Origin: Clostridia bacterium
GTDB taxonomy: Bacteria; Bacillota; Peptococcia; DRI-13; DTU073
Assembly (NCBI GenBank): GCA_028684195.1
Contig: JAQUGH010000001.1
Location: forward strand, 19,771 to 83,770
Length of the DNA: 64,000 nucleotides
Direction of reading: 5' to 3'
A program made the translations under genes and the position numbers. Position 1 is the stretch's first letter. Each line of letters starts with the position of its first letter. This document shows, in pieces, positions 18,778 to 54,213 of this stretch. The notes beneath the pieces were generated by a model that worked only from the letters and a program-made list of their open reading frames with translations, had not been told where the DNA came from and made no database searches.

Positions 18778-20085
18778 TCACTTGTCTTTCTTTCTAATAG
18801 ATGGGGGCATCTTTTGTGATATTTCCAACATTCCTTCTGCCATCTCTGTTACTTTCTCTCTTAATTTAAATATGCAATCAACCTCATCTGCTTGTCCCCT
18901 TACAATATCTTCTGCCAAAGCTCGACAAGTAGGTGCACCACACGACCCACAATCTAACCCGGGCAAAAATTTTTCAATCACCTCAAGATTCTCCATTTTC
19001 TGCATAGCAATAGCAATATTATCATCCAGTTTTAAAACTTCAATTGGCTTTATTTTTTCCGTAAACATAAGCTCCTGCCAATCAGGATGCTTCGCTAATT
19101 CTTGCTGCTTGTCCACTTTATTTCGTGCCAACCAATCTATGCGAGCTTTTGCCATAAAAGGATTTTCTACAGTAAGCGGTCCGCCAACACAACCTCCTAC
19201 ACATGACAACGCTTCAATAAAATCTACTTCTTTTAACTTACCCATTACTACTTCTTCCAAAACCTTAGTCACATTTTCAACACCATCAACAGCAAGATAT
19301 CGAAGTCCTGAAATGAATCTGCTTTCTCCACCGCTAATTGCCCATCCCACACCTGCTCCAGAGGATTTTTGCAAATCAGGTGCCTTTTTAATATCTTTTA
19401 TTTTACTTAAAAGTAGTCCATATATTTCGGATATCCCAATGACACCATCAACAGCAGAGTTTTTCATACCAACCGGATTTTTTACCCCTGTTACCTTGGC
19501 AGCACAAGGTGAAATGAAAAATACGCCAACTTTTTCCGAAGGATATCCTGCCTTACTCATCTCTTCCTTAGCTATCTTAGCTGCCGTTTCCATAGGTGAC
19601 TTAATTGGAACTATATTATTTATAAGTTCAGGGAATTTTACCTGAATTAATTTTACTACTGCCGGACAAGCCGAAGAAATAACCGGTCTGGGAAAATCCT
19701 TATTACTAAGAAAATCATTTACTGCACGAGTAACCAGTTCCGCACCCAATGCTACTTCCCATACCTTATAAAACCCCAATTCTAACAAACCTGCAATAAT
19801 ATGATTCACTGTAAATTTAGTTCCAAACTGACTATACAAACTCGGAGCTGGAAGAGCAATCGGATATTCATATCCCTTGATTTTTTCCAAAGGATCAGTT
19901 ATGGCTAATTTTGCATGATATGGACAGATCCTTATACACTCGCCACAATCAATACACCGTTCATCGATTATTTTAGCCTTCCCATCACGAACACGAATAG
20001 CCTCCGTAGGACAATGTTTTATACAATTTGTACAACCCCTGCATAACTCTTCATCAAGAGTAACCGAGTGAAAATATGAATCCAC
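18778..20085 (-). CDS. Sensory-type [FeFe]-hydrogenase-like protein (HydS/HfsB-like, no PAS domain seen)
   Basis: Two ferredoxin motifs are CRGCTNCIKHCP and CIDCGECIRICP. H-cluster-like motifs are SSACPAVV, FISPCAAK and LSCVGGCVGGP. A C-terminal CGSCGAPTCRALAEDI Fe-S motif is also present. Confidence 0.8.
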   Translation of the reverse strand: MDSYFHSVTLDEELCRGCTNCIKHCPTEAIRVRDGKAKIIDERCIDCGECIRICPYHAKLAITDPLEKIKGYEYPIALPAPSLYSQFGTKFTVNHIIAGLLELGFYKVWEVALGAELVTRAVNDFLSNKDFPRPVISSACPAVVKLIQVKFPELINNIVPIKSPMETAAKIAKEEMSKAGYPSEKVGVFFISPCAAKVTGVKNPVGMKNSAVDGVIGISEIYGLLLSKIKDIKKAPDLQKSSGAGVGWAISGGESRFISGLRYLAVDGVENVTKVLEEVVMGKLKEVDFIEALSCVGGCVGGPLTVENPFMAKARIDWLARNKVDKQQELAKHPDWQELMFTEKIKPIEVLKLDDNIAIAMQKMENLEVIEKFLPGLDCGSCGAPTCRALAEDIVRGQADEVDCIFKLREKVTEMAEGMLEISQKMPPSIRKKDK

Positions 20086-20104
20086 CTAATTTCACCCCTT
20101 CATT

Positions 20105-20148
20105 AACAATAGTTTAACAATAGTTTAACAATGGTTCAACAATCGTTC
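20105..20148. repeat. Four tandem 11-bp units AACAAT(A/G/C)GTT(T/C)
   Basis: The units are AACAATAGTTT, AACAATAGTTT, AACAATGGTTC and AACAATCGTTC, read directly. They fill the 64-bp spacer between the kinase-like gene and the hydrogenase-like gene. The same motif array recurs at 49430-49487. Confidence 0.9.
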
Positions 20149-20149
20149 C

Positions 20150-20581
20150 CTACCTAATAATCATCTTAATAGTAGTACCCTTCCCTTTTTGAGATTCTAT
20201 ATTAAATGTATCAGCACAATTTCGCATATTAGGTAACCCCATTCCGGCGCCAAACCCCATTTCCCTAATGCTCTCTGGTGCTGTAGAATATCCTTCTTGC
20301 ATAGCCTTATCTATATTTGGTATACCAGGTCCTGTATCAGTTATTGAGATGCACACTACATCTGGTTTGATTTCAGCTTTTATCACTCCTCCCCAGGAGT
20401 GAATAACCAAATTCATTTCTGCTTCATAAGTAGCAATCGCTACACGCCTTATAAGACTTGAGGGAAACCCTAGCTTCATTAACTTATTTTTTATCTTTGA
20501 ACTAGCCTCTCCAGCGCAGGTGAAATTACCCTTCTCCACAAAATAACTCATGACCATTGGTTTAACTATATTATCTCTCAT
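20150..20581 (-). CDS. RsbW/SpoIIAB-like anti-sigma-type serine kinase (GHKL ATPase domain only)
   Basis: 143 aa. HATPase_c motifs are EAEMNLVIHS (N box), TDTGPGIPN (G1) and GFGAGMGLPN (G2). There is no HisKA domain. Confidence 0.75.
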   Translation of the reverse strand: MRDNIVKPMVMSYFVEKGNFTCAGEASSKIKNKLMKLGFPSSLIRRVAIATYEAEMNLVIHSWGGVIKAEIKPDVVCISITDTGPGIPNIDKAMQEGYSTAPESIREMGFGAGMGLPNMRNCADTFNIESQKGKGTTIKMIIR

Positions 20582-20730: not shown

Positions 20731-21432
20731 TTAACTGCACTTTACATTTTTGATCATGTACCCAACGCCACTACAAGTTACAATATATTCAGGATTTCCA
20801 GCATCACGCTCAATTTTTTGTCTTAATCTTCCCACACTCACTCTTAAATAATGGGTACAATCCTTATATTCACTTCCCCAAATTTCTTCCAATAGTTCAT
20901 CGTGATGTACTACTTTACCTGCATTATTAGCTAAATAAGTTAAAAGTTTAAATTCAGTAGGAGTTAAATGTGCTACATGTCCATCAACCGATACCTGTCT
21001 TTGTGCTAGATCAATTAAAAGACTGCCCAGTTTAATTCTATCAGAAGAATTTTGCGAAAGGTTGTTTTTAACCCTTCGCAAAACAGCATTAACTCGTGCC
21101 AATAATTCTTCTACTGCAAAAGGTTTTGAAACATAATCGTCAGCCCCTGCATTCAAACCTTCTACAGCATCCTGCATATCACCTTTTGCCGTAATCATAA
21201 TGATAGGTACATCTGATTTCTTTCTAATACGTCTACACACCTCTAATCCATCTAATTCCGGAAGCATAATGTCCAGAATTATTACATCCAGTTTTGATGT
21301 TTCAAATTTAGACAAAGCTTCTAAACCTGTCATAGCAGATACCACTTCATATCCACTAGCCCTGAGATTTGCTCTTATAAAGCGTAAAATATTTGACTCA
21401 TCATCTACTACTAAAGCTACTAGCTTGTTCAT
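20731..21432 (-). CDS. OmpR-family DNA-binding response regulator
   Basis: 233 aa. The receiver domain has VVDDE...DVIILDIMLP...ITAKG. The C-terminal winged helix has LTPTEFKLLTYLA...GVGY. There is a 4-bp overlap with the upstream kinase gene. Confidence 0.9.
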   Translation of the reverse strand: MNKLVALVVDDESNILRFIRANLRASGYEVVSAMTGLEALSKFETSKLDVIILDIMLPELDGLEVCRRIRKKSDVPIIMITAKGDMQDAVEGLNAGADDYVSKPFAVEELLARVNAVLRRVKNNLSQNSSDRIKLGSLLIDLAQRQVSVDGHVAHLTPTEFKLLTYLANNAGKVVHHDELLEEIWGSEYKDCTHYLRVSVGRLRQKIERDAGNPEYIVTCSGVGYMIKNVKCS

Positions 21433-24161
21433 TTTTCTTCCCCCTCCACATTTTTACATGGTAAAGTAAAATAAAATTCACTGCCTTTGCCTAAACTACT
21501 TTCAACCCAAATAGAACCCCCATGATTCTTTATTATCCATTTTGTAATAGCAAGCCCGACGCCACTACCATTAATGCGTAATGCCATTTTATTTTCAACA
21601 CGATAAAATCTTTTAAAAATATCTTTATGATATTGAGGTGCTATCCCTATGCCTTGATCTATTACTCCCACCTTTATCATATTTTCTTTTTTTAAATATC
21701 CTAATTTTACATAAATAACCTTCTCTGCGGAAGAATATTTTACTGCATTTTCCAATAGGTTATTAAGAACATGTTCTATCCTCTGTTCATCCATCACAAT
21801 AATAGGTAGATCCCCTCTATCATCTACCTTGAAAATATTTTTAGGATACCTATCCCTTAAACGTTTTAAAACCCTAGCCGTAATTTTACTAATGTTAGCA
21901 TTATGTAGATTTAGTTTAAAAACTCCAGCCTCTATCTTAGAAATATCCATAATATTATCTATTAAATATTCTAATCTTTTACTTTCCTCAATAATAGCTT
22001 TAATAAAATCCGTCTTTTCATCCTCAGTCCAAGTTACACCCTGTCTTAAAAGAGAGTCCGCACTCCCATAGATCGTAGTCAATGGAGAACGAAATTCATG
22101 CGATACAGTAGATAATATAGAATCCTTTAAAATATTCACTTGTCTTTCTCGTGTTACATCACGCATAACATATCCATAACCAATAAAAGTCTTACCCGTC
22201 ATTACAGGAAACCCCTGTACCTTATAATAATTAGTATTATCCTTATATGTGACTGAACCCTTCCCATATTCATATGCCTGTTGCTCTTTATAACATTTTT
22301 TCATCTCATCCCAAGGTAGCTCTATTAATGTTTCAGGATCTATATAGTTACGAAATTCTGATATGTATAAATCCGCAGTCCATTCTGATTCTTTCAAATG
22401 AAATATTTTTAGTAATAATGGATTTACATATATTATTTTCCCCCTCGTATCAAGTATAATAATCCCCTCATGCATACCATTAATCACAGCAAGCAATGTA
22501 TGATGTTCCTCATTTACTACATTAAAAAGAGCCAAATTGCTTATAACTACCCCAAGCTGATTAGCAACAGCTTGCAATACAATAATCTCTTGATCTTTAA
22601 AACGATTTGCGACACGACTCGTTAAAGTCACCGCACCTAATACAACATCTTGGTATCTAATAGGCACACTAACAAGAGATCTCATATCACTCCAACAAAG
22701 CGCAAGTGGAACATTTTTTTCATTTTTCTGCAAATCATCAATTACAACAATATCTCTTTTTTCCATAGCCAATTTACTGTACCAGCCAGTACATTCCGTA
22801 TAAATTATCTTCTCAGTCCGTGGATAGTTTGCACCCCAAATCGTATGTACAAGTTTTTCATTATCTGTCCTATGAAGATAGATATTAGCTAATTCTACTT
22901 CAAACAACTTCATTACTTCATTTAAAACTAAATTTATAACATCGGTTAAATTACAAGTCTCATTTACAGAAGAAACAACAGCATATAATGTAGCCATCTC
23001 TTTATCTTTCATAACAAGTTCCCTTGTTCGCTCTCTAACTCGCCTTTCAAGATTATTTCCATGCTTTTTAAGCATGGAATCTACTTTTTCTAGATTATCT
23101 GCCATAGAATTAAATCCTTCACCCAACTTATTTATTTCCGGAAGTATATTATTTCTTGCAAATTCAACCCGATACGCTAAATTTCCTATTGCCAATTCTG
23201 AATTAGCCTTATTAATCTGAGACAAAGGAATAACTATTTTATTAATTAACGATTTTTTAATAGAGAATATAACAAATACTCCTAGCAACAATATCCCAAA
23301 AGATATACCCATTGCCTTATACAAAGGTAGCAACACCTCGTAACGCGGTGCAGTCACCCACATTGTCCAACCTAAATTATTTAATTTTAAATAACAAGCT
23401 GTTTCACCAAGTTTAGATAACGGAGAAAAATAATTTAATGAACCTTCCGATGATTTCTTTAAAGCATTTAAAATTGGATAATTCTCAGGAAAAGAATCTA
23501 CCTTTCTATCATAAGAATAGATCACTCGATTATTGCCATCTACTAAAACAAAATGTCCTAAAGATGCCATATCCCCTTTCTTTAATAATCTATATATTTC
23601 ATCCATATCTAAAGTACCTATAACATACCCACAATACCTTCCTTCCTTAGTTTTTATCGGTTTAGCTACAAAAATTATTTCATTTCCGTTATGCTCTCGT
23701 ATAACCTGACTTACTATAGATGTCTCTGCTCTTTTAAATTTACTTGTAACATTATTCCATAGACATCTATCCTTTTCTAAAATATAATACGCCGTTATTT
23801 CATCATATTTAGAGCTAAACTGACAAGCTTCACAATTTAAAAATATATCAACAAAGCCCTCATAATGCTCCGCATATTTTTCAATCATATCCTTCAGTTT
23901 TGTACCTTTTAAATTACATTGAGAATTATAAAACTGTCCTGCCTGTTCACTTATATTATTCACAGCAAAAATATACTTGTTAATATAACGTGTTAATTCT
24001 TCTGCTTGTTCTACAACAGCAGAAGAATAATTTGCTTTTAGCTCTTTCTCTTTTTCTATTAAATCAAAAGTAACATAAATACCCAGTATAGCAAGCGGTA
24101 TTATGGCTAATGCTACTATAATCTTCGTATAAAAAGAAAGCGTCAATTTTTTTTTCAGCAT
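21429..24161 (-). CDS. Multi-domain sensor histidine kinase (periplasmic Cache-like, HAMP, GAF, PAS, HisKA, HATPase)
   Basis: 910 aa with two TM helices flanking a ~250-aa extracytoplasmic domain. The HAMP region includes LAIGNLAYRVE and the H-box is VSHEFRSPLTTI. The N/G boxes are LENAVKYS, DQGIGI and GSGVGLAI. Confidence 0.85.
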   Translation of the reverse strand: MLKKKLTLSFYTKIIVALAIIPLAILGIYVTFDLIEKEKELKANYSSAVVEQAEELTRYINKYIFAVNNISEQAGQFYNSQCNLKGTKLKDMIEKYAEHYEGFVDIFLNCEACQFSSKYDEITAYYILEKDRCLWNNVTSKFKRAETSIVSQVIREHNGNEIIFVAKPIKTKEGRYCGYVIGTLDMDEIYRLLKKGDMASLGHFVLVDGNNRVIYSYDRKVDSFPENYPILNALKKSSEGSLNYFSPLSKLGETACYLKLNNLGWTMWVTAPRYEVLLPLYKAMGISFGILLLGVFVIFSIKKSLINKIVIPLSQINKANSELAIGNLAYRVEFARNNILPEINKLGEGFNSMADNLEKVDSMLKKHGNNLERRVRERTRELVMKDKEMATLYAVVSSVNETCNLTDVINLVLNEVMKLFEVELANIYLHRTDNEKLVHTIWGANYPRTEKIIYTECTGWYSKLAMEKRDIVVIDDLQKNEKNVPLALCWSDMRSLVSVPIRYQDVVLGAVTLTSRVANRFKDQEIIVLQAVANQLGVVISNLALFNVVNEEHHTLLAVINGMHEGIIILDTRGKIIYVNPLLLKIFHLKESEWTADLYISEFRNYIDPETLIELPWDEMKKCYKEQQAYEYGKGSVTYKDNTNYYKVQGFPVMTGKTFIGYGYVMRDVTRERQVNILKDSILSTVSHEFRSPLTTIYGSADSLLRQGVTWTEDEKTDFIKAIIEESKRLEYLIDNIMDISKIEAGVFKLNLHNANISKITARVLKRLRDRYPKNIFKVDDRGDLPIIVMDEQRIEHVLNNLLENAVKYSSAEKVIYVKLGYLKKENMIKVGVIDQGIGIAPQYHKDIFKRFYRVENKMALRINGSGVGLAITKWIIKNHGGSIWVESSLGKGSEFYFTLPCKNVEGEEK

Positions 24162-44005: not shown

Positions 44006-45133
44006 CTACTCCACAGGGAGCATATCAGCAATTACCAGTATTTTTGCTAATATTTCTTCTCCCCTCTTATTTACCGCCGCAAAATCCATTGCCTTAATAT
44101 ATTTTTTTTCCAAATCATCATGTGATTCCTTAGCTGATTTTAATCTGCTCCATGCCAGTTCTCTCAAATGGGATATGCGTTTTTTACAATCTTTTATTTC
44201 TCGTTTATATTTTTTAATAATATCTGTATAAACAAATTCATCACAGTTAAATTCTTGATAAATTTCTAATCCAACAACACTAGTAGCTTCAAATTCCAGC
44301 GGCTCATTTATTCTTAAAAAAGCAACCTCTATATCCGGAAAACAAACAAGCTCAATTTTATTTGGATCAAAAGGGCAATGGTATAATTCACAATTCAAAC
44401 CTCTATCCGTTCCAAAGTGATAGATGCTTCTCAAGATTTTTTCCTTGCAGGCTCCTTGTTGACCTTTCAATAAATAAAGTTTTTTTACCTTTTGAAGTAT
44501 TGTATCAAGATGATTCACATATCCACCTGGAGTATTTGCACTAGCAAAAAGATTGCGTACCTCTGGCTTTCTGTTAAATTGCGGACTACTGCTTCTGAAT
44601 AAAGTATTAATTATTTCATAAATTAATTTATTAACCTTAGCCCAATCAGTAGCTTCTTTAAAGTAACCTTCTAACTCATCACTAGCTACTTTAGCCTCTT
44701 TTAAGTAGCTGTACACCATTTTATACTTACTTGAAATATTATTAATATAATCTTCTATCTCATCCTTAGCCTCGACCAAGATTTTTTCGTCCCAATATTC
44801 ACCAAGATTTATTATCTCATCAACAGCACCAGGAATTTTGGGATCCACTACATGCGGAGCTGTCCCATCTACAACAGCGACACCCAATGTGGGAATAGCA
44901 ACTCCATCCAAAGAATCATTATCCGATGAACAACAATGATATTCCACATCAAATCCTTTTTCTACGAGTACCATTCCTGTTTTTTTCATTAACCTTGACT
45001 TCCCTACCCCAGGTCCTCCTTTTAAAATAAATATTTTATTTGCTTTTCCTTGAATAATATTGTCATAAAATGAATAAAAACCATAGCAGGTATTATTACC
45101 TGGAAACACTTTTTTGATCTTTCCTTTTGTCAT
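44006..45133 (-). CDS. Conserved P-loop ATPase of unknown function (PRK06851-like, recalled)
   Basis: 375 aa. Walker A is GGPGVGKS and the Walker B-like segment is GVAVVDGTAPH. The family name is from memory only. Confidence 0.55.
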   Translation of the reverse strand: MTKGKIKKVFPGNNTCYGFYSFYDNIIQGKANKIFILKGGPGVGKSRLMKKTGMVLVEKGFDVEYHCCSSDNDSLDGVAIPTLGVAVVDGTAPHVVDPKIPGAVDEIINLGEYWDEKILVEAKDEIEDYINNISSKYKMVYSYLKEAKVASDELEGYFKEATDWAKVNKLIYEIINTLFRSSSPQFNRKPEVRNLFASANTPGGYVNHLDTILQKVKKLYLLKGQQGACKEKILRSIYHFGTDRGLNCELYHCPFDPNKIELVCFPDIEVAFLRINEPLEFEATSVVGLEIYQEFNCDEFVYTDIIKKYKREIKDCKKRISHLRELAWSRLKSAKESHDDLEKKYIKAMDFAAVNKRGEEILAKILVIADMLPVE

Positions 45134-45233
45134 AATTAATCACCCTTTTTTTAACTTCATTCAACTGGAATCTGAATGTTCCTTTACACCATGATACATA
45201 CTTTTATATTTATGTATTTTAATATGCTTTTGT

Positions 45234-46620: not shown

Positions 46621-46810
46621 GTTGCTTTTCCCCTTTACTATTTTACTATTTACTCTATTTACTCTATTTACTTAAAATAGTTAACCTAAGCTATAAATTT
46701 TCACAATCCAATTACACCAACAAATAAACTGTTTATAAGATTAACTATCAAGAGAGAGCACAGAAGAACCGTCCCTTTGTGTCTCCTTCATTATTGTACT
46801 CAAAAGATTA

Positions 46811-46950
46811 CTACATGAGGAGCTGTCCCATCTACAACAGCGACACCCAATGTGGAAATAGCAACTCCATCTAAAAAATCATTACTTGATGAATATCATT
46901 CTTACTCTTATTCAGAAAAAGTGAAACTTCATTCAGCTTGAATCTGAATA
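46811..46950 (-). pseudogene. Degenerate duplicate of the 5' end and upstream region of the P-loop ATPase gene at 44006-45133
   Basis: 46811-46895 aligns by eye, with few mismatches, to 44849-44945 (CTACATG.GGAGCTGTCCCATCTACAACAGCGACACCCAATGTGG.AATAGCAACTCCATC...). 46926-46950 aligns to 45153-45178 (CTTCATTCA.C..GAATCTGAAT). About 200 bp is deleted in between. Confidence 0.75.
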
Positions 46951-47862: not shown

Positions 47863-49440
47863 ATGTCACTAGAAAGTTGTATCAACAACATTTTACAAAG
47901 GTCTGAGGTGAAATCTAATTTATCCATTCCTGCACTAATGGAAGCAGCCATACGCCGAGGGGAGGGTATTCTCACAAATAAAGGCTCACTACGCGTAACT
48001 ACAGGAAAATATACAGGTCGATCCCCCGATGACAAATTCTTTGTTCGGGACAAAATGAGTGAAAACGTCATAAATTGGTGCAACATAAACAGACCAATGT
48101 CCCCGCAAAATTATCAATTGCTATTTGAAGATATCACGAATTATTTAATGAATCAAGAGGTTTTTGTTTTTGATGGGTATGCAGGTGCAGATTCACATCA
48201 TCGTTTGAAACTTCGTATTATTAATGACCAAGCATGGCAAAATATGTTTTGTCATCAACTTTTTATTCGACCAACTGCTGAAGAACTTGTTGATTTTTTC
48301 CCAGACTACCATATCATCGCAGCACCAGGATTTAAGGCAAATCCGCAAAAACATGGTACTAACTCGGAGGCTGCTATAGTTGTCAACCTAACAGAAAAAA
48401 CTATTCTTATCGCAGGTGCATCTTATGCCGGAGAAATTAAAAAGTCCGTGTTCTCTCTTGTCAATTATGTACTACCTATTAAGAACGTTCTGTCAATGCA
48501 CTGTTCTGCTAACGTAGATTCCGCAGGTAATTCCGCACTGTTTTTTGGACTATCCGGAACTGGTAAGACTACACTTTCAGCCGATCCTAAAAGGCAACTA
48601 ATAGGCGATGATGAACATGGATGGTCTAATGCTGGTATATTTAACATCGAAGGGGGTTGTTATGCCAAGAGTATTGGTCTTAGCGCACTCGATGAACCTC
48701 AAATTTATGGGGCTATTCGCTTTGGTACAGTTCTTGAGAACGTTTCTATAAATAAGAATACTCGTGAAGTTGATTTTTCTAATGGAGATATTACTGAAAA
48801 CACCAGGGCAGCTTACCCTCTTAATTACATACCTAATGCTTTAATACCCAGCATAGCCGGTCACCCAAAAGTGATATTTTTCTTAACGGCTGACGCCTTT
48901 GGTGTACTTCCTCCTATTGCTTCACTTAACATAGAACAAGCAATGTATCATTTTCTTTCCGGATATACAAGTAAATTGGCAGGAACTGAGAGAGGAATAA
49001 AAGAACCACAGGCTACTTTTTCTGAATGCTTTGGTTCTCCATTTCTTCCTTTACCTCCAATCAAATATGCAAATTTATTAGGTGAAAAAATAAGTGAGTT
49101 TGGAACGCAAGTGTATTTGTTAAATACCGGTTGGACTGGAGGTTCTTACGGAGTTGGTCACAGATTTAAAATACCACATACTCGCACTATTCTCACGGCA
49201 GCCTTAGAAGGAACTTTGAAAAATATTCCAACTCATAAAGATCCTATATTTGGTTTTGAAGTTCCAGAATTTTGTCCCGGTGTACCAAAAGAAATCTTTA
49301 CTCCCCAAAAAACTTGGTTACATCCAGAAGATTATCCGGTTCAAGCATTAAAGTTAGCTACCCTATTTAGAAAGAACTTTACAAAATTCAAGGATATTCC
49401 TGAAGGAATTTCAAATGCTTCACCCATCATTAAACAATAG
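47863..49440 (+). CDS. pckA: Phosphoenolpyruvate carboxykinase (ATP)
   Basis: 525 aa. It has the kinase-1a motif GLSGTGKTTLS, plus GDDEHGW and NIEGGCYAK. Confidence 0.95.
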   Translation: MSLESCINNILQRSEVKSNLSIPALMEAAIRRGEGILTNKGSLRVTTGKYTGRSPDDKFFVRDKMSENVINWCNINRPMSPQNYQLLFEDITNYLMNQEVFVFDGYAGADSHHRLKLRIINDQAWQNMFCHQLFIRPTAEELVDFFPDYHIIAAPGFKANPQKHGTNSEAAIVVNLTEKTILIAGASYAGEIKKSVFSLVNYVLPIKNVLSMHCSANVDSAGNSALFFGLSGTGKTTLSADPKRQLIGDDEHGWSNAGIFNIEGGCYAKSIGLSALDEPQIYGAIRFGTVLENVSINKNTREVDFSNGDITENTRAAYPLNYIPNALIPSIAGHPKVIFFLTADAFGVLPPIASLNIEQAMYHFLSGYTSKLAGTERGIKEPQATFSECFGSPFLPLPPIKYANLLGEKISEFGTQVYLLNTGWTGGSYGVGHRFKIPHTRTILTAALEGTLKNIPTHKDPIFGFEVPEFCPGVPKEIFTPQKTWLHPEDYPVQALKLATLFRKNFTKFKDIPEGISNASPIIKQ

Positions 49441-49487
49441 TTAAACGATCGTTAAACAATTGTTAAACAGTGGTTAAACAATCGTTT
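49430..49487. repeat. Five tandem 11-bp units (TT)AAACAATNGTT-type; same motif as 20105-20148
   Basis: The units are AACAATAGTTA, AACGATCGTTA, AACAATTGTTA, AACAGTGGTTA and AACAATCGTTT. The array starts in the last codons of pckA and ends 3 bp before the -35 box of the tRNA promoter. Confidence 0.9.
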
Positions 49488-49489
49488 AC

Positions 49490-49518
49490 TTGACATTTAG
49501 TTTCACCCGTGTTAAGAT
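49490..49518 (+). promoter_or_regulatory. Sigma-A type promoter of tRNA-Leu
   Basis: TTGACA (49490-95), a 17-nt spacer, then TAAGAT (49513-18), about 30 nt upstream of the tRNA. Confidence 0.55.
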
Positions 49519-49548
49519 TTTTATTGCTTAGTGATTGATATTCCTAAT

Positions 49549-49633
49549 GCGGAAGTGCTGGAATTGGCAGACAGGCACGTTTGAGGGGCGTGTGGCGTAA
49601 GTCGTGCGGGTTCAAGTCCCGCCTTCCGCACCA
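49549..49633 (+). tRNA. tRNA-Leu, anticodon GAG, with encoded CCA
   Basis: Folded by hand. The acceptor stem pairs GCGGAAG with CTTCCGC. The anticodon stem pairs CACGT with GCGTG around the loop TTGAGGG. A long variable arm marks it as class II. The T-arm is GCGGGTTCAAGTCCCGC and the 3' end is CCA. Confidence 0.9.
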
Positions 49634-49674
49634 TGAAAAAAATTCCACTTGAAAATCAGTGGCTTTTTACTTAT

Positions 49675-49734: not shown

Positions 49735-49813
49735 ATGATATTTATACAAACTAAATTTTAAGCAACTAGGAAACAAATGATTCTTATCACAATTTTTTTC
49801 GGTATGATTGTAA

Positions 49814-49921
49814 TTATTTGGGTTTGTTCGCTGTCTCTGTTGACAAAGGTACTGAAGAAACAACTTTTTTTTCAGCTTTCTTCTTCTTTTTTTCCCTGTT
49901 TTTAGGACTTTTATCACCCAT
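49814..49921 (-). CDS. Unannotated small basic protein, 35 aa (MGDKSPKNREKKKKKAEKKVVSSVPLSTETANKPK)
   Basis: Own translation: ATG at 49921, 7 nt after GGAGG, and TAA at 49816-49814, followed by the strong terminator. It is too short for the ORF track. The 101-aa track ORF 49612-49917 is a different frame of the same lysine-codon-rich stretch. Confidence 0.5.
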   Translation of the reverse strand: MGDKSPKNREKKKKKAEKKVVSSVPLSTETANKPK

Positions 49922-50676
49922 CGTAACTACCTCCAATCGATCAAATATTCTCTACTTGTTAAGTATACTCCCTTACTAAGATTTCCGCCATCATCCATAT
50001 AAGCTAAAAAAGTTTGTTAACAGCTTAACAAGCACCCTAATGTTTCTTACACAACCCAATCTCATTTTTACTCGCTAAAGAAACATATTCCAACCATATA
50101 CAACCAAGTATACAAAAACATTTCACCTATTACTCAAATCTCAGAAGTATCATAGCTCCTTTTTACAATATAGCATACCAACAGTTGCCATACAAGCCGT
50201 ATGCACAAAATTTCATTATCTGGAAATTACTGTCTGAAATAATTTTCTGTTTATTATTTTCTTTATAATTATCATTTTGACTATTGAAATTATTTTTATT
50301 ATAACATAACCCCTCTTGAATACGTTATAATGTAATAGGTTTTATGTTTGATTTATCCAAATAGCTAACTGTCGCTATCTTTTCACACAGTAAGCATCAT
50401 TCCTTTGGCTACGTTTAAAACACAAACTAACACTAACGAACAATTTCGTAAGTATTACTAACGTATAATGGTTTAACTAACCTTTTGTGGTAGATAAAAC
50501 CCCACTGGATGACGAATTACTCTAATATTTTACTTGTTCGTTCGTTAGTTAATCCACAACGATGTTAGTTCAACGTGTTTTGGACAACAAATATTTTATT
50601 TTAACTAGTATTATAGTATACTGGTAGGTGCGGTTCAAACATGTAGATATACATCTATCTATATGTATTTAATTAA

Positions 50677-54213
<3,537 letters not shown>

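Follow-up and report, generated by a model that had tools for sequence, protein, structure and literature searches.

A tandem array of 11-bp quasi-palindromic units between pckA and a tRNA-Leu promoter in an uncultured Clostridia bacterium is probably a copy of a dispersed repeat family

Results

The array between pckA and the tRNA-Leu promoter

The stretch analysed here is 64,000 nucleotides of contig JAQUGH010000001.1 (assembly GCA_028684195.1; hereafter the window) from an uncultured member of the Clostridia, and its plus strand carries pckA, an open reading frame (ORF) for an ATP-dependent phosphoenolpyruvate carboxykinase (47863..49440; PF01293), followed by a tRNA-Leu with anticodon GAG (49549..49633, plus strand). 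Between the two lies an array of five 11-bp units, referred to as array 2 (49433..49487, no strand assigned), which run in register as AACAATAGTTA, AACGATCGTTA, AACAATTGTTA, AACAGTGGTTA and AACAATCGTTT. A sequence-only reading of the window had described five tandem in-register units upstream of the tRNA promoter, and both Tandem Repeats Finder (period 11, 5.5 copies, score 80) and a shuffle test agreed with that description. The array starts at 49433 rather than at 49430 as first given, and it takes in the last two sense codons of pckA rather than the last three. As the ORF ends at 49440, unit 1 supplies these two codons (AAA CAA) and the TAG stop (49438-49440), and the PckA C-terminus reads NASPIIKQ* here, where relatives have NASPK* or other endings. 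The central unit is the perfect palindrome it was said to be, although it is not alone in this, unit 2 (AACGATCGTT) being perfectly palindromic as well.

The tRNA-Leu promoter (49490..49518, plus strand) consists of a -35 box TTGACA at 49490-49495, a 17-nt spacer with TG at 49510-49511 and a -10 box TAAGAT at 49513-49518. Only 2 nt (AC) separate array 2 from TTGACA, the array ending one base before a conserved C at 49489, so that the reported closeness to the -35 box is real, but the reported gap of 3 bp would apply only to a 10-bp unit. With a transcription start estimated near 49525, array 2 spans about -37 to -92. A terminator-like hairpin with a T-run follows the tRNA on its 3' side (49645..49671, plus strand), while no terminator-like signal was seen between pckA and the tRNA promoter and no U-run follows array 2. 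The array is richer in A+T than the window (73% vs 65%), folds as RNA at -14 kcal/mol (z = -2.7) and is identical in an independent metagenome assembly (L001, from ENA).

Sister arrays in the same genome

A second array, array 1 (20105..20148, no strand assigned), lies within a minus-strand operon and has four units, AACAATAGTTT AACAATAGTTT AACAATGGTTC AACAATCGTTC, for which Tandem Repeats Finder returned a period of 11 with 4.1 copies and a score of 69 (20103-20147). It begins 2 nt past the TAG stop of a HATPase gene (20150-20152); next come a conserved Shine-Dalgarno block and, at 20083-20085, the GTG with which an Fe-hydrogenase-like gene starts. Arrays 1 and 2 agree in unit, period and strand, as the sequence-only reading had noticed, with the purine-type strand being the plus strand in both. 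The window as a whole has a very strongly negative GC skew, most 4-kb bins being at about -0.3, and the majority of its genes are encoded by the minus strand. The RNA fold of array 1 has a z of -1.1, and the two arrays are alike in carrying stop codons in all six frames.

Both arrays consist of a head-to-tail unit within the range of 1-11 nt repeated beyond chance. Every exact match to AACAATNGTT in the window falls inside array 1 or array 2, and the eight two-unit windows that match at least 14 of 16 consensus positions are likewise all within the two arrays, against 0.05 in shuffled sequence. The only extended similarity between the two was TTCACCC-n-T-CATT on one side, the other flanks being unalignable; it was judged to be chance, and at array 2 this stretch is ancestral Ser-Pro coding sequence. 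A third array, in two blocks, turned up in about 17 kb of further sequence of the same organism (L319 5237-5330), roughly 2.5 kb past the right end of the window, and its first block supplies the final ~11 codons of a TetR-family gene together with the TAA stop. There are therefore three array loci in about 81 kb, and each lies on, or no more than 3 nt from, the stop codon of the upstream gene.

The same loci in relatives

The closest PckA homologues are 69-73% identical, some of them labelled Peptococcia, and four such relatives were compared at the pckA locus (L107, L109, L111 and L112). The order pckA, promoter core, tRNA-Leu(GAG) was kept in all four, with the core reading cTTGACA-17-TGnTAAGAT or TGnTAATAT, which bears out the earlier identification of a genuine TTGACA promoter and tRNA-Leu. 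From the pckA stop to the -35 box these relatives have 28-47 nt of non-repetitive, mutually unrelated sequence, and no array was found anywhere in their 10-21-kb loci. The conservation expected of a promoter element therefore extends to the core, while array and upstream similarity are absent; L109 has AACGAATAGATTAAAC at the pckA stop, which is like one unit. Array 2 is thus specific to this lineage, relatives with the same gene order and promoter core being without it.

The spacer between the HATPase and hydrogenase-like genes is 64 nt here vs 17-20 nt in three relatives (69-74% identical). In the relatives it consists of a TGA stop, then (T/C)GAAGGAGTGAAG, then the start codon, and here of TAG, GG, four units and the TGAAGGGGTGAAA block, so that the conserved TGAAGGAGTGAAG block is kept just past array 1. 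Given this short spacer and retained block in three relatives, array 1 is a clean addition of about 47 bp (four units, a few bases and a new stop) at the end of the upstream gene. In relatives L314-L316 a cheW gene is located between the OmpR-type response-regulator and HATPase genes of this region, where only about 150 nt are present here (window 20731..24161).

A repeat family in other genomes

Species-representative genomes were searched for AACNNTNGTTN three times over, and this three-unit pattern was present at more than 105 loci among the matches listed, vs about 0.3 expected by our own calculation with uniform base composition. The matches include perfect repeats of unrelated 11-mers as well as Bacteroides and Pedobacter variants, and the remainder mostly share the unit of the window. 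Hosts among the listed matches were mostly Clostridia metagenome-assembled genomes (MAGs), often with several contigs per MAG, together with MAGs of Thermotogaceae, Synergistaceae and, in the Bacteroidota, Chitinophagaceae/Flavisolibacter; one isolate, Serpentinicella, was included.

The listed loci contained 135 arrays of 3 to 23 units each, 126 of which were outside long open frames as called by our own mechanical procedure. The gene setting was co-directional for 69 arrays, convergent for 14 and divergent for 12, and the genes downstream were unrelated housekeeping genes such as metK, nth, mnmE, uvrB, recF and argR. Arrays tended towards the ends of genes: in the 69 co-directional spacers an upstream stop was within 15 nt of the array in 22 cases vs a downstream start in five (sign test p = 0.03), and eight arrays overlapped the upstream stop. 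No DNA-binding or transposase gene recurred beside arrays in the listed loci, the only recurring family being PF05635, and no RAYT (IS200/IS605-like) transposase was seen, a result that covers the array loci rather than whole genomes. No clear orientation preference relative to flanking genes or GC skew was apparent in a rough hand tally (about 35 vs 26).

A lack of enrichment of arrays at promoters had been named in the sequence-only reading as a result that would count against a promoter role. In the loci from other genomes, promoter-like sites abutted nine of 265 array ends vs 6.8 expected, which is no enrichment, and at 105 loci only one array, of the Pedobacter type, had a tRNA within 400 nt. 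Length varied in whole units: L042 and L094 (86% identical) have an array at the same site with 3 vs 7 units, an indel of exactly 44 bp with the flanks aligned, and runs of identical units and 33-bp super-repeats were present in L025, L059 and L132. The family thus behaves as dispersed repeats do, with several mostly noncoding loci per genome, no shared neighbour function and whole-unit length steps.

Two further arrangements were observed around arrays. In a Thermotogaceae MAG the array forms part of a dispersed element about 230 bp long, of which four copies were seen (L015 3660-3980, L045 1-300, L026 1-300 and L071 2660-2905); the left ~80 bp of this element are conserved and contain a hairpin, and the array travels within the larger repeat. 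Other tandem repeats, including GGGCAA hexamers, GGTTTAAA-type octamers and TTTAGGG-like heptamers, often adjoin arrays and form composite intergenic repeat islands in Synergistaceae (L019, L043), Bacteroides (L002, L008, L029, L055) and Chitinophagaceae (L024, L039, L078, L098).

A loose form of the pattern gave more than 120 matches in viral contigs (L114-L233), mostly of a GC-richer AACGGTCGTTG / AACGACCGTTC type that was judged to be a different phenomenon. This viral motif often occurs twice about 200 bp apart and is inside long open frames in 121 of 147 cases, and it is probably a coding phenomenon. The strict pattern occurred in only six viral contigs, and one phage contig (L132) has four Clostridia-type arrays that bracket single genes.

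Rfam searches covered the window from 44 to 51 kb (E up to 1) and, at the gathering threshold, five array-rich loci; they returned only the tRNA and one T-box, leaving the arrays unmatched. When a 121-bp array was compared by BLAST with annotated plasmids and phages, nothing matched, possibly on account of the low-complexity filter. No published description of the unit, or of its 11-bp, 11-nt or undecamer tandem-repeat family, was found in the searchable literature, and the family with its 11-bp quasi-palindromic unit is apparently undescribed.

Sequence constraint on the unit

Units located beside the search seeds, and therefore unselected by the pattern, had the consensus AAC-n-AT-n-GTT-n, base composition being close to uniform at positions 4, 7 and 11. 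The same consensus was obtained again from arrays reached through protein homology or genome adjacency without any DNA pattern, and these pattern-free arrays had an information content of 0.6-1.2 bits at eight positions vs 0.05-0.19 bits at positions 4, 7 and 11. Within arrays 1 and 2 all of the nine or more differences between units fell at positions 4, 5, 7 and 11, and by our own calculation the chance of nine differences falling at four positions is (4/11)^9, or about 1e-4.

Two-fold symmetry relates the conserved positions, with axes at the unit centre and at position 11, and the pattern returns with every helical turn. Positions 4 and 7 were complementary less often than expected (64 observed vs 115 expected). 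Base pairing is therefore not what is conserved, which speaks against selection for a hairpin or cruciform and in favour of symmetric recognition of the duplex. Something sequence-specific must make or read the arrays.

PF05635 genes between arrays

PF05635, the family of the 23S rRNA intervening-sequence protein with an Avd-like four-helix bundle, was the only gene family that recurred beside arrays. A PF05635 gene had arrays on both sides in a Clostridia locus (L017 2968-3535), in Flavisolibacter (L049) and in L102 (4900-5560), and in the last two the flanking arrays are inverted relative to each other. In L056 (7520-8000) an array is present on the one available flank and the PF05635 gene runs off the end of the locus. 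L049 has a second PF05635 copy, which lies between inverted arrays of GGTTGA hexamers; the PF05635 regions of L049 are 1-600 and 1750-2200.

Among 80 metagenome PF05635 homologues collected by protein similarity, the closest had AAC...GTT 11-mers on both sides and distant ones had other short units. The flank units by lineage, including those of L234-L313, comprised AAC..GTT 11-mers, GGTTGA hexamers, GTTTA-type units and 20-mers, and the whole has the appearance of a cassette whose inverted ends are made of repeats. When the left flank was compared with the reverse complement of the right, at least five common 7-mers were found in 37 of 73 PF05635 loci, while control flanks lying 300 nt more distant gave five of 55. 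No PF05635 gene is present within the window, so the link to the window arrays is indirect.

A predicted Rex box and other features of the window

The sequence-only reading had pointed to an inverted pair, TTGTTAA-CAGC-TTAACAA at 50014-50031, as sharing a half-site with the array. The pair (TTGTTAACAGCTTAACAA) is present there, but its kinship with the arrays does not hold, as it reproduces without a mismatch the clostridial Rex-operator consensus TTGTTAANNNNTTAACAA, described as TTGTTAA-N4-TTAACAA (PMC5367854), and the sole one in the window. It is a feature separate from the arrays, and Rex sites were rejected as the identity of the arrays themselves, since only a TTAACAA-like word is common to both and the array half-sites are direct and without the inverted N4 spacing. 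The match sits in about 1 kb of non-coding sequence that separates the tRNA-Leu from a pyruvate:ferredoxin oxidoreductase gene (50689..54213), and this predicted Rex box suggests redox (NADH/NAD+) control of a neighbouring transcription unit. Between the tRNA-Leu and the Rex box a small minus-strand open frame with a good Shine-Dalgarno sequence (about 49800-49904, read by eye) encodes a lysine-rich peptide (MGDKSPKNREKKKKKAEKK...).

Upstream of pckA, 44847-44944 and 46810-46907 form a 98-nt direct repeat, 87% identical, which is accompanied by a 25-nt direct repeat (45153-45177 and 46925-46949). Together they bracket a segment of 1.96 kb with an ABC-membrane fragment and a small TRAM-domain gene, and this segment may be a duplication or an insertion scar. 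The L001 assembly has 26 extra bases near position 46793.

Discussion

Array 2 as a copy of a dispersed repeat family

The reading we prefer, and hold to be somewhat more probable than all others together, is that array 2 is a lineage-specific copy, one of at least three in this genome, of a dispersed 11-bp tandem-repeat family, AAC-n-A-T-n-GTT-n, which occupies short non-coding gaps with a preference for gene ends, and that its proximity to a promoter is incidental. Because the family is scattered through intergenic gaps and the array is missing from the same promoter in relatives, array 2 is probably not a dedicated control site of the tRNA promoter.

A plausible course of events can be outlined for such a copy. 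The array would arrive or be seeded at a gene end, through insertion or from a proto-unit, and would supply a new stop; it would be tolerated there because every unit carries stop codons. Slipped-strand mispairing would then grow or shrink it until selected sequence was reached. For array 2 these limits would be the reading frame of pckA and, at the opposite end, the -35 box, so that it would have replaced all unconstrained DNA between them. Eight fixed, two-fold-symmetric positions together with drifting positions 4, 7 and 11 imply recognition of the units by a symmetric factor. The simplest candidate would be a protein dimer bound to duplex DNA, with one dimer to each helical turn and all of them on one face. 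This factor could take part in spreading the arrays, or it could be a protein of the host. Any effect on the tRNA-Leu promoter would be a by-product and not the reason for the array's existence.

Several points weigh against this interpretation. The density of arrays in the organism rests on three arrays in about 81 kb, no copy-number difference at arrays 1 and 2 was found among three assemblies of the organism, and the symmetric reading factor is putative. Array 2 sits where upstream promoter elements act (-37 to -92) and may have acquired an effect on tRNA-Leu transcription, and the array common to L042 and L094 has outlived about 14% nucleotide divergence, which a host function would also fit. 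Seeding could have been either by insertion or by in-situ amplification of a proto-unit such as that at the pckA stop of L109. As the relatives compared are distant (about 70% protein identity), gain here and loss elsewhere are formally unseparated, although three or four independent losses would be less parsimonious than a gain in this lineage.

The result removes the annotation of a regulatory array from the tRNA promoter, and the repeat-family assignment also covers the array at 20105-20148. The family goes beyond ordinary slippage debris in that the unit is one helical turn long, is under two-fold-symmetric constraint and has the same consensus across several phyla. The arrays rewrite gene ends with new stops and new C-terminal residues and shift intergenic spacing in 11-bp steps, both of which matter for gene calling in MAGs.

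Other explanations

It is possible, if doubtful, that the arrays are instead a DNA platform selected by the host, on which a chromosomal dimer (e.g. of the ribbon-helix-helix type) would bind every 11 bp and coat one face of the helix. The bound platform would act as a roadblock or insulator between adjacent transcription units, at this locus between pckA read-through and the tRNA promoter, or would repress or activate that promoter. The two-fold-symmetric constraint with an 11-bp period, the location of arrays between genes and often just past stop codons, the persistence of an array at an orthologous site across 14% divergence and the missing terminator between pckA and the tRNA promoter are all consistent with this. 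Relatives with the same gene order are without the array at both window sites, however, no tie to gene function, promoters or orientation was apparent, the family has a patchy spread across phyla, and no candidate protein gene recurs beside arrays. The phased protein platform put forward in the sequence-only reading is reasonable as a generic mechanism, with symmetric positions once per helical turn, and is also part of the course of events that we prefer, but not as a device specific to this promoter.

It is also possible, though doubtful, that the arrays are cis-sites of an undescribed, horizontally spreading system in which a symmetric factor would recognise one AAC-n-AT-n-GTT unit per turn, the arrays being brought to the 3' ends of genes either as ends of small mobile cassettes or as solo remnants of them. 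The sole recurrent cargo so far would be PF05635, in Clostridia, Bacteroidota and many metagenome contigs. The arrangement of a PF05635 gene between inverted arrays resembles the stem of a 23S rRNA intervening sequence. If true, the link to cassettes would provide a first handle on a very common family without an assigned role outside diversity-generating retroelements.

Action at the RNA level is unlikely. Under this explanation the array would be an element of the pckA 3' untranslated region or, for array 1, of the sequence between cistrons, and would serve as a hairpin that terminates or stabilises the transcript, a processing site or the repeated site of a post-transcriptional regulator; binding of such a regulator has been proposed for TAACTGA heptamer repeats (PMC4679880). 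The RNA fold of array 2 would fit, as would arrays elsewhere in which purine-type units give way to pyrimidine-type ones, so that long hairpins would form, the inverted arrays around PF05635 genes, which could pair in RNA, and the many arrays that end about 17-20 nt before a start codon, beside the Shine-Dalgarno sequence. Array 1 is not unusually stable, however, no U-run follows array 2, no clear orientation preference was found, the complementarity of positions 4 and 7 is depleted and there was no Rfam match.

The element envisaged in the sequence-only reading, a UP-like, activator-bound or bent upstream activating element of the tRNA-Leu promoter, has in its favour the location of array 2 (about -37 to -92) upstream of a strong promoter with an extended -10, its high A+T content and its predicted curvature, which at about 52 degrees in 77 bp stands at roughly the 90th percentile among segments of the window. 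This element is nevertheless very unlikely. Four orthologous promoters have the core and are without the array, and at the canonical register only four of 14 positions match the UP consensus (NNAAAWWTWTTTTNNNAAANNN). Of the sister arrays, one is internal to an operon and another covers the stop codon of a TetR gene, the family shows no enrichment beside promoters or tRNAs, and Fis, which had been offered as a parallel, is a gammaproteobacterial protein. Predicted curvature was unexceptional overall: in a wedge model, array 1 was at the median of the window with 28 degrees and idealised arrays were bent no more than shuffled 11-mers, while a phased A-tract control gave 136 degrees.

Least probable is an operator for a regulator that reads 11-bp direct repeats, either an OmpR/PhoB-family response regulator or a CarH-type repressor. 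Bacillus PhoP boxes have TTAACA plus 5 nt, with the hexamer TT(A/T/C)ACA, and CarH sites read nAnnTnnACAn; array 1 has TTAACA-N5 three times and then TCAACA, nAnnTnnACAn is present in two units, the period of about 11 bp agrees and an OmpR-type regulator gene is two genes upstream of array 1, but position 11, which corresponds to the second T of TTAACA, is free to vary in the family at large, array 2 reads TAAACA or TAAACG there, array neighbours are diverse with no regulon, arrays are past stop codons rather than over -35 regions with no promoter enrichment, and relatives with the same regulator operon are without array 1. PhoP, ArcA and CarH operators were thus rejected on the hexamer and regulon tests. 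The core sites of integron attC (GTTRRRY/RYYYAAC) are fitted by the unit junction GTTNAAC by eye, and integrons are not known in Firmicutes.

Comparison with known systems

UP elements and activator sites are, like array 2, A+T-rich and directly upstream of a -35 box, here that of a tRNA gene; UP elements occupy about -38 to -60 of a stable-RNA promoter and activator sites can be further upstream, a range into which array 2 falls. They differ from it in sequence (the 4/14 match given above), in that array 2 is not conserved at the orthologous promoter and in that its family is not promoter-associated. The Pho boxes of OmpR/PhoB regulators and CarH operators have the 11-bp periodicity in common with the arrays, and array 1 fits TTAACA-N5 by eye, but they differ in the family consensus, in position relative to genes and in the regulon that is missing here.

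Similar in architecture are parC of plasmid R1, with 11-bp iterons bound by the ribbon-helix-helix protein ParR, and the metbox arrays of MetJ. These also have units of about one helical turn, each fit for a symmetric dimer, in variable number, and parC abuts a promoter as array 2 does. They are, however, found at one dedicated locus by the genes of their binder or regulon, whereas the arrays described here are scattered and without a partner gene.

Repetitive extragenic palindromes (REPs) and the bacterial interspersed mosaic elements (BIMEs) are, like the arrays, dispersed, extragenic, palindromic and variable between relatives, often at the 3' ends of genes and inside operons. A REP, however, is an imperfect hairpin of 20-40 nt, single or paired, that is tied to RAYT transposases and does not form in-register tandem repeats. 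In the arrays, pairing at the variable positions is not favoured, and these are about equally frequent in divergent (12) and convergent (14) settings.

The nearest described counterparts of the arrays are long simple sequence repeats, above all the TAACTGA heptamers. Dispersed intergenic short tandem repeats are also known from cyanobacteria as the STRR heptamers. Long simple sequence repeats as a concept go back to Mrazek et al. 2007, as summarised in PMC4679880, and TAACTGA heptamer repeats are abundant and intergenic in Beggiatoaceae, Cyanobacteria and Bacteroidetes (MacGregor 2015, PMC4679880). In contrast to the fixed heptamer, the unit described here is 11 bp, or one helical turn, quasi-palindromic and with three free positions, and its arrays are without a clear orientation towards start codons and have mainly uncultured Clostridia as hosts. 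In common with the TAACTGA and long simple sequence repeats (PMC4679880), the arrays have short tandem units (1-11 nt) at many mostly intergenic loci with unrelated neighbours. As with TAACTGA (PMC4679880), function is unassigned, units that contain stop codons overlap the ends of genes, relatives differ by indels of whole units, and a patchy distribution across phyla suggests horizontal spread.

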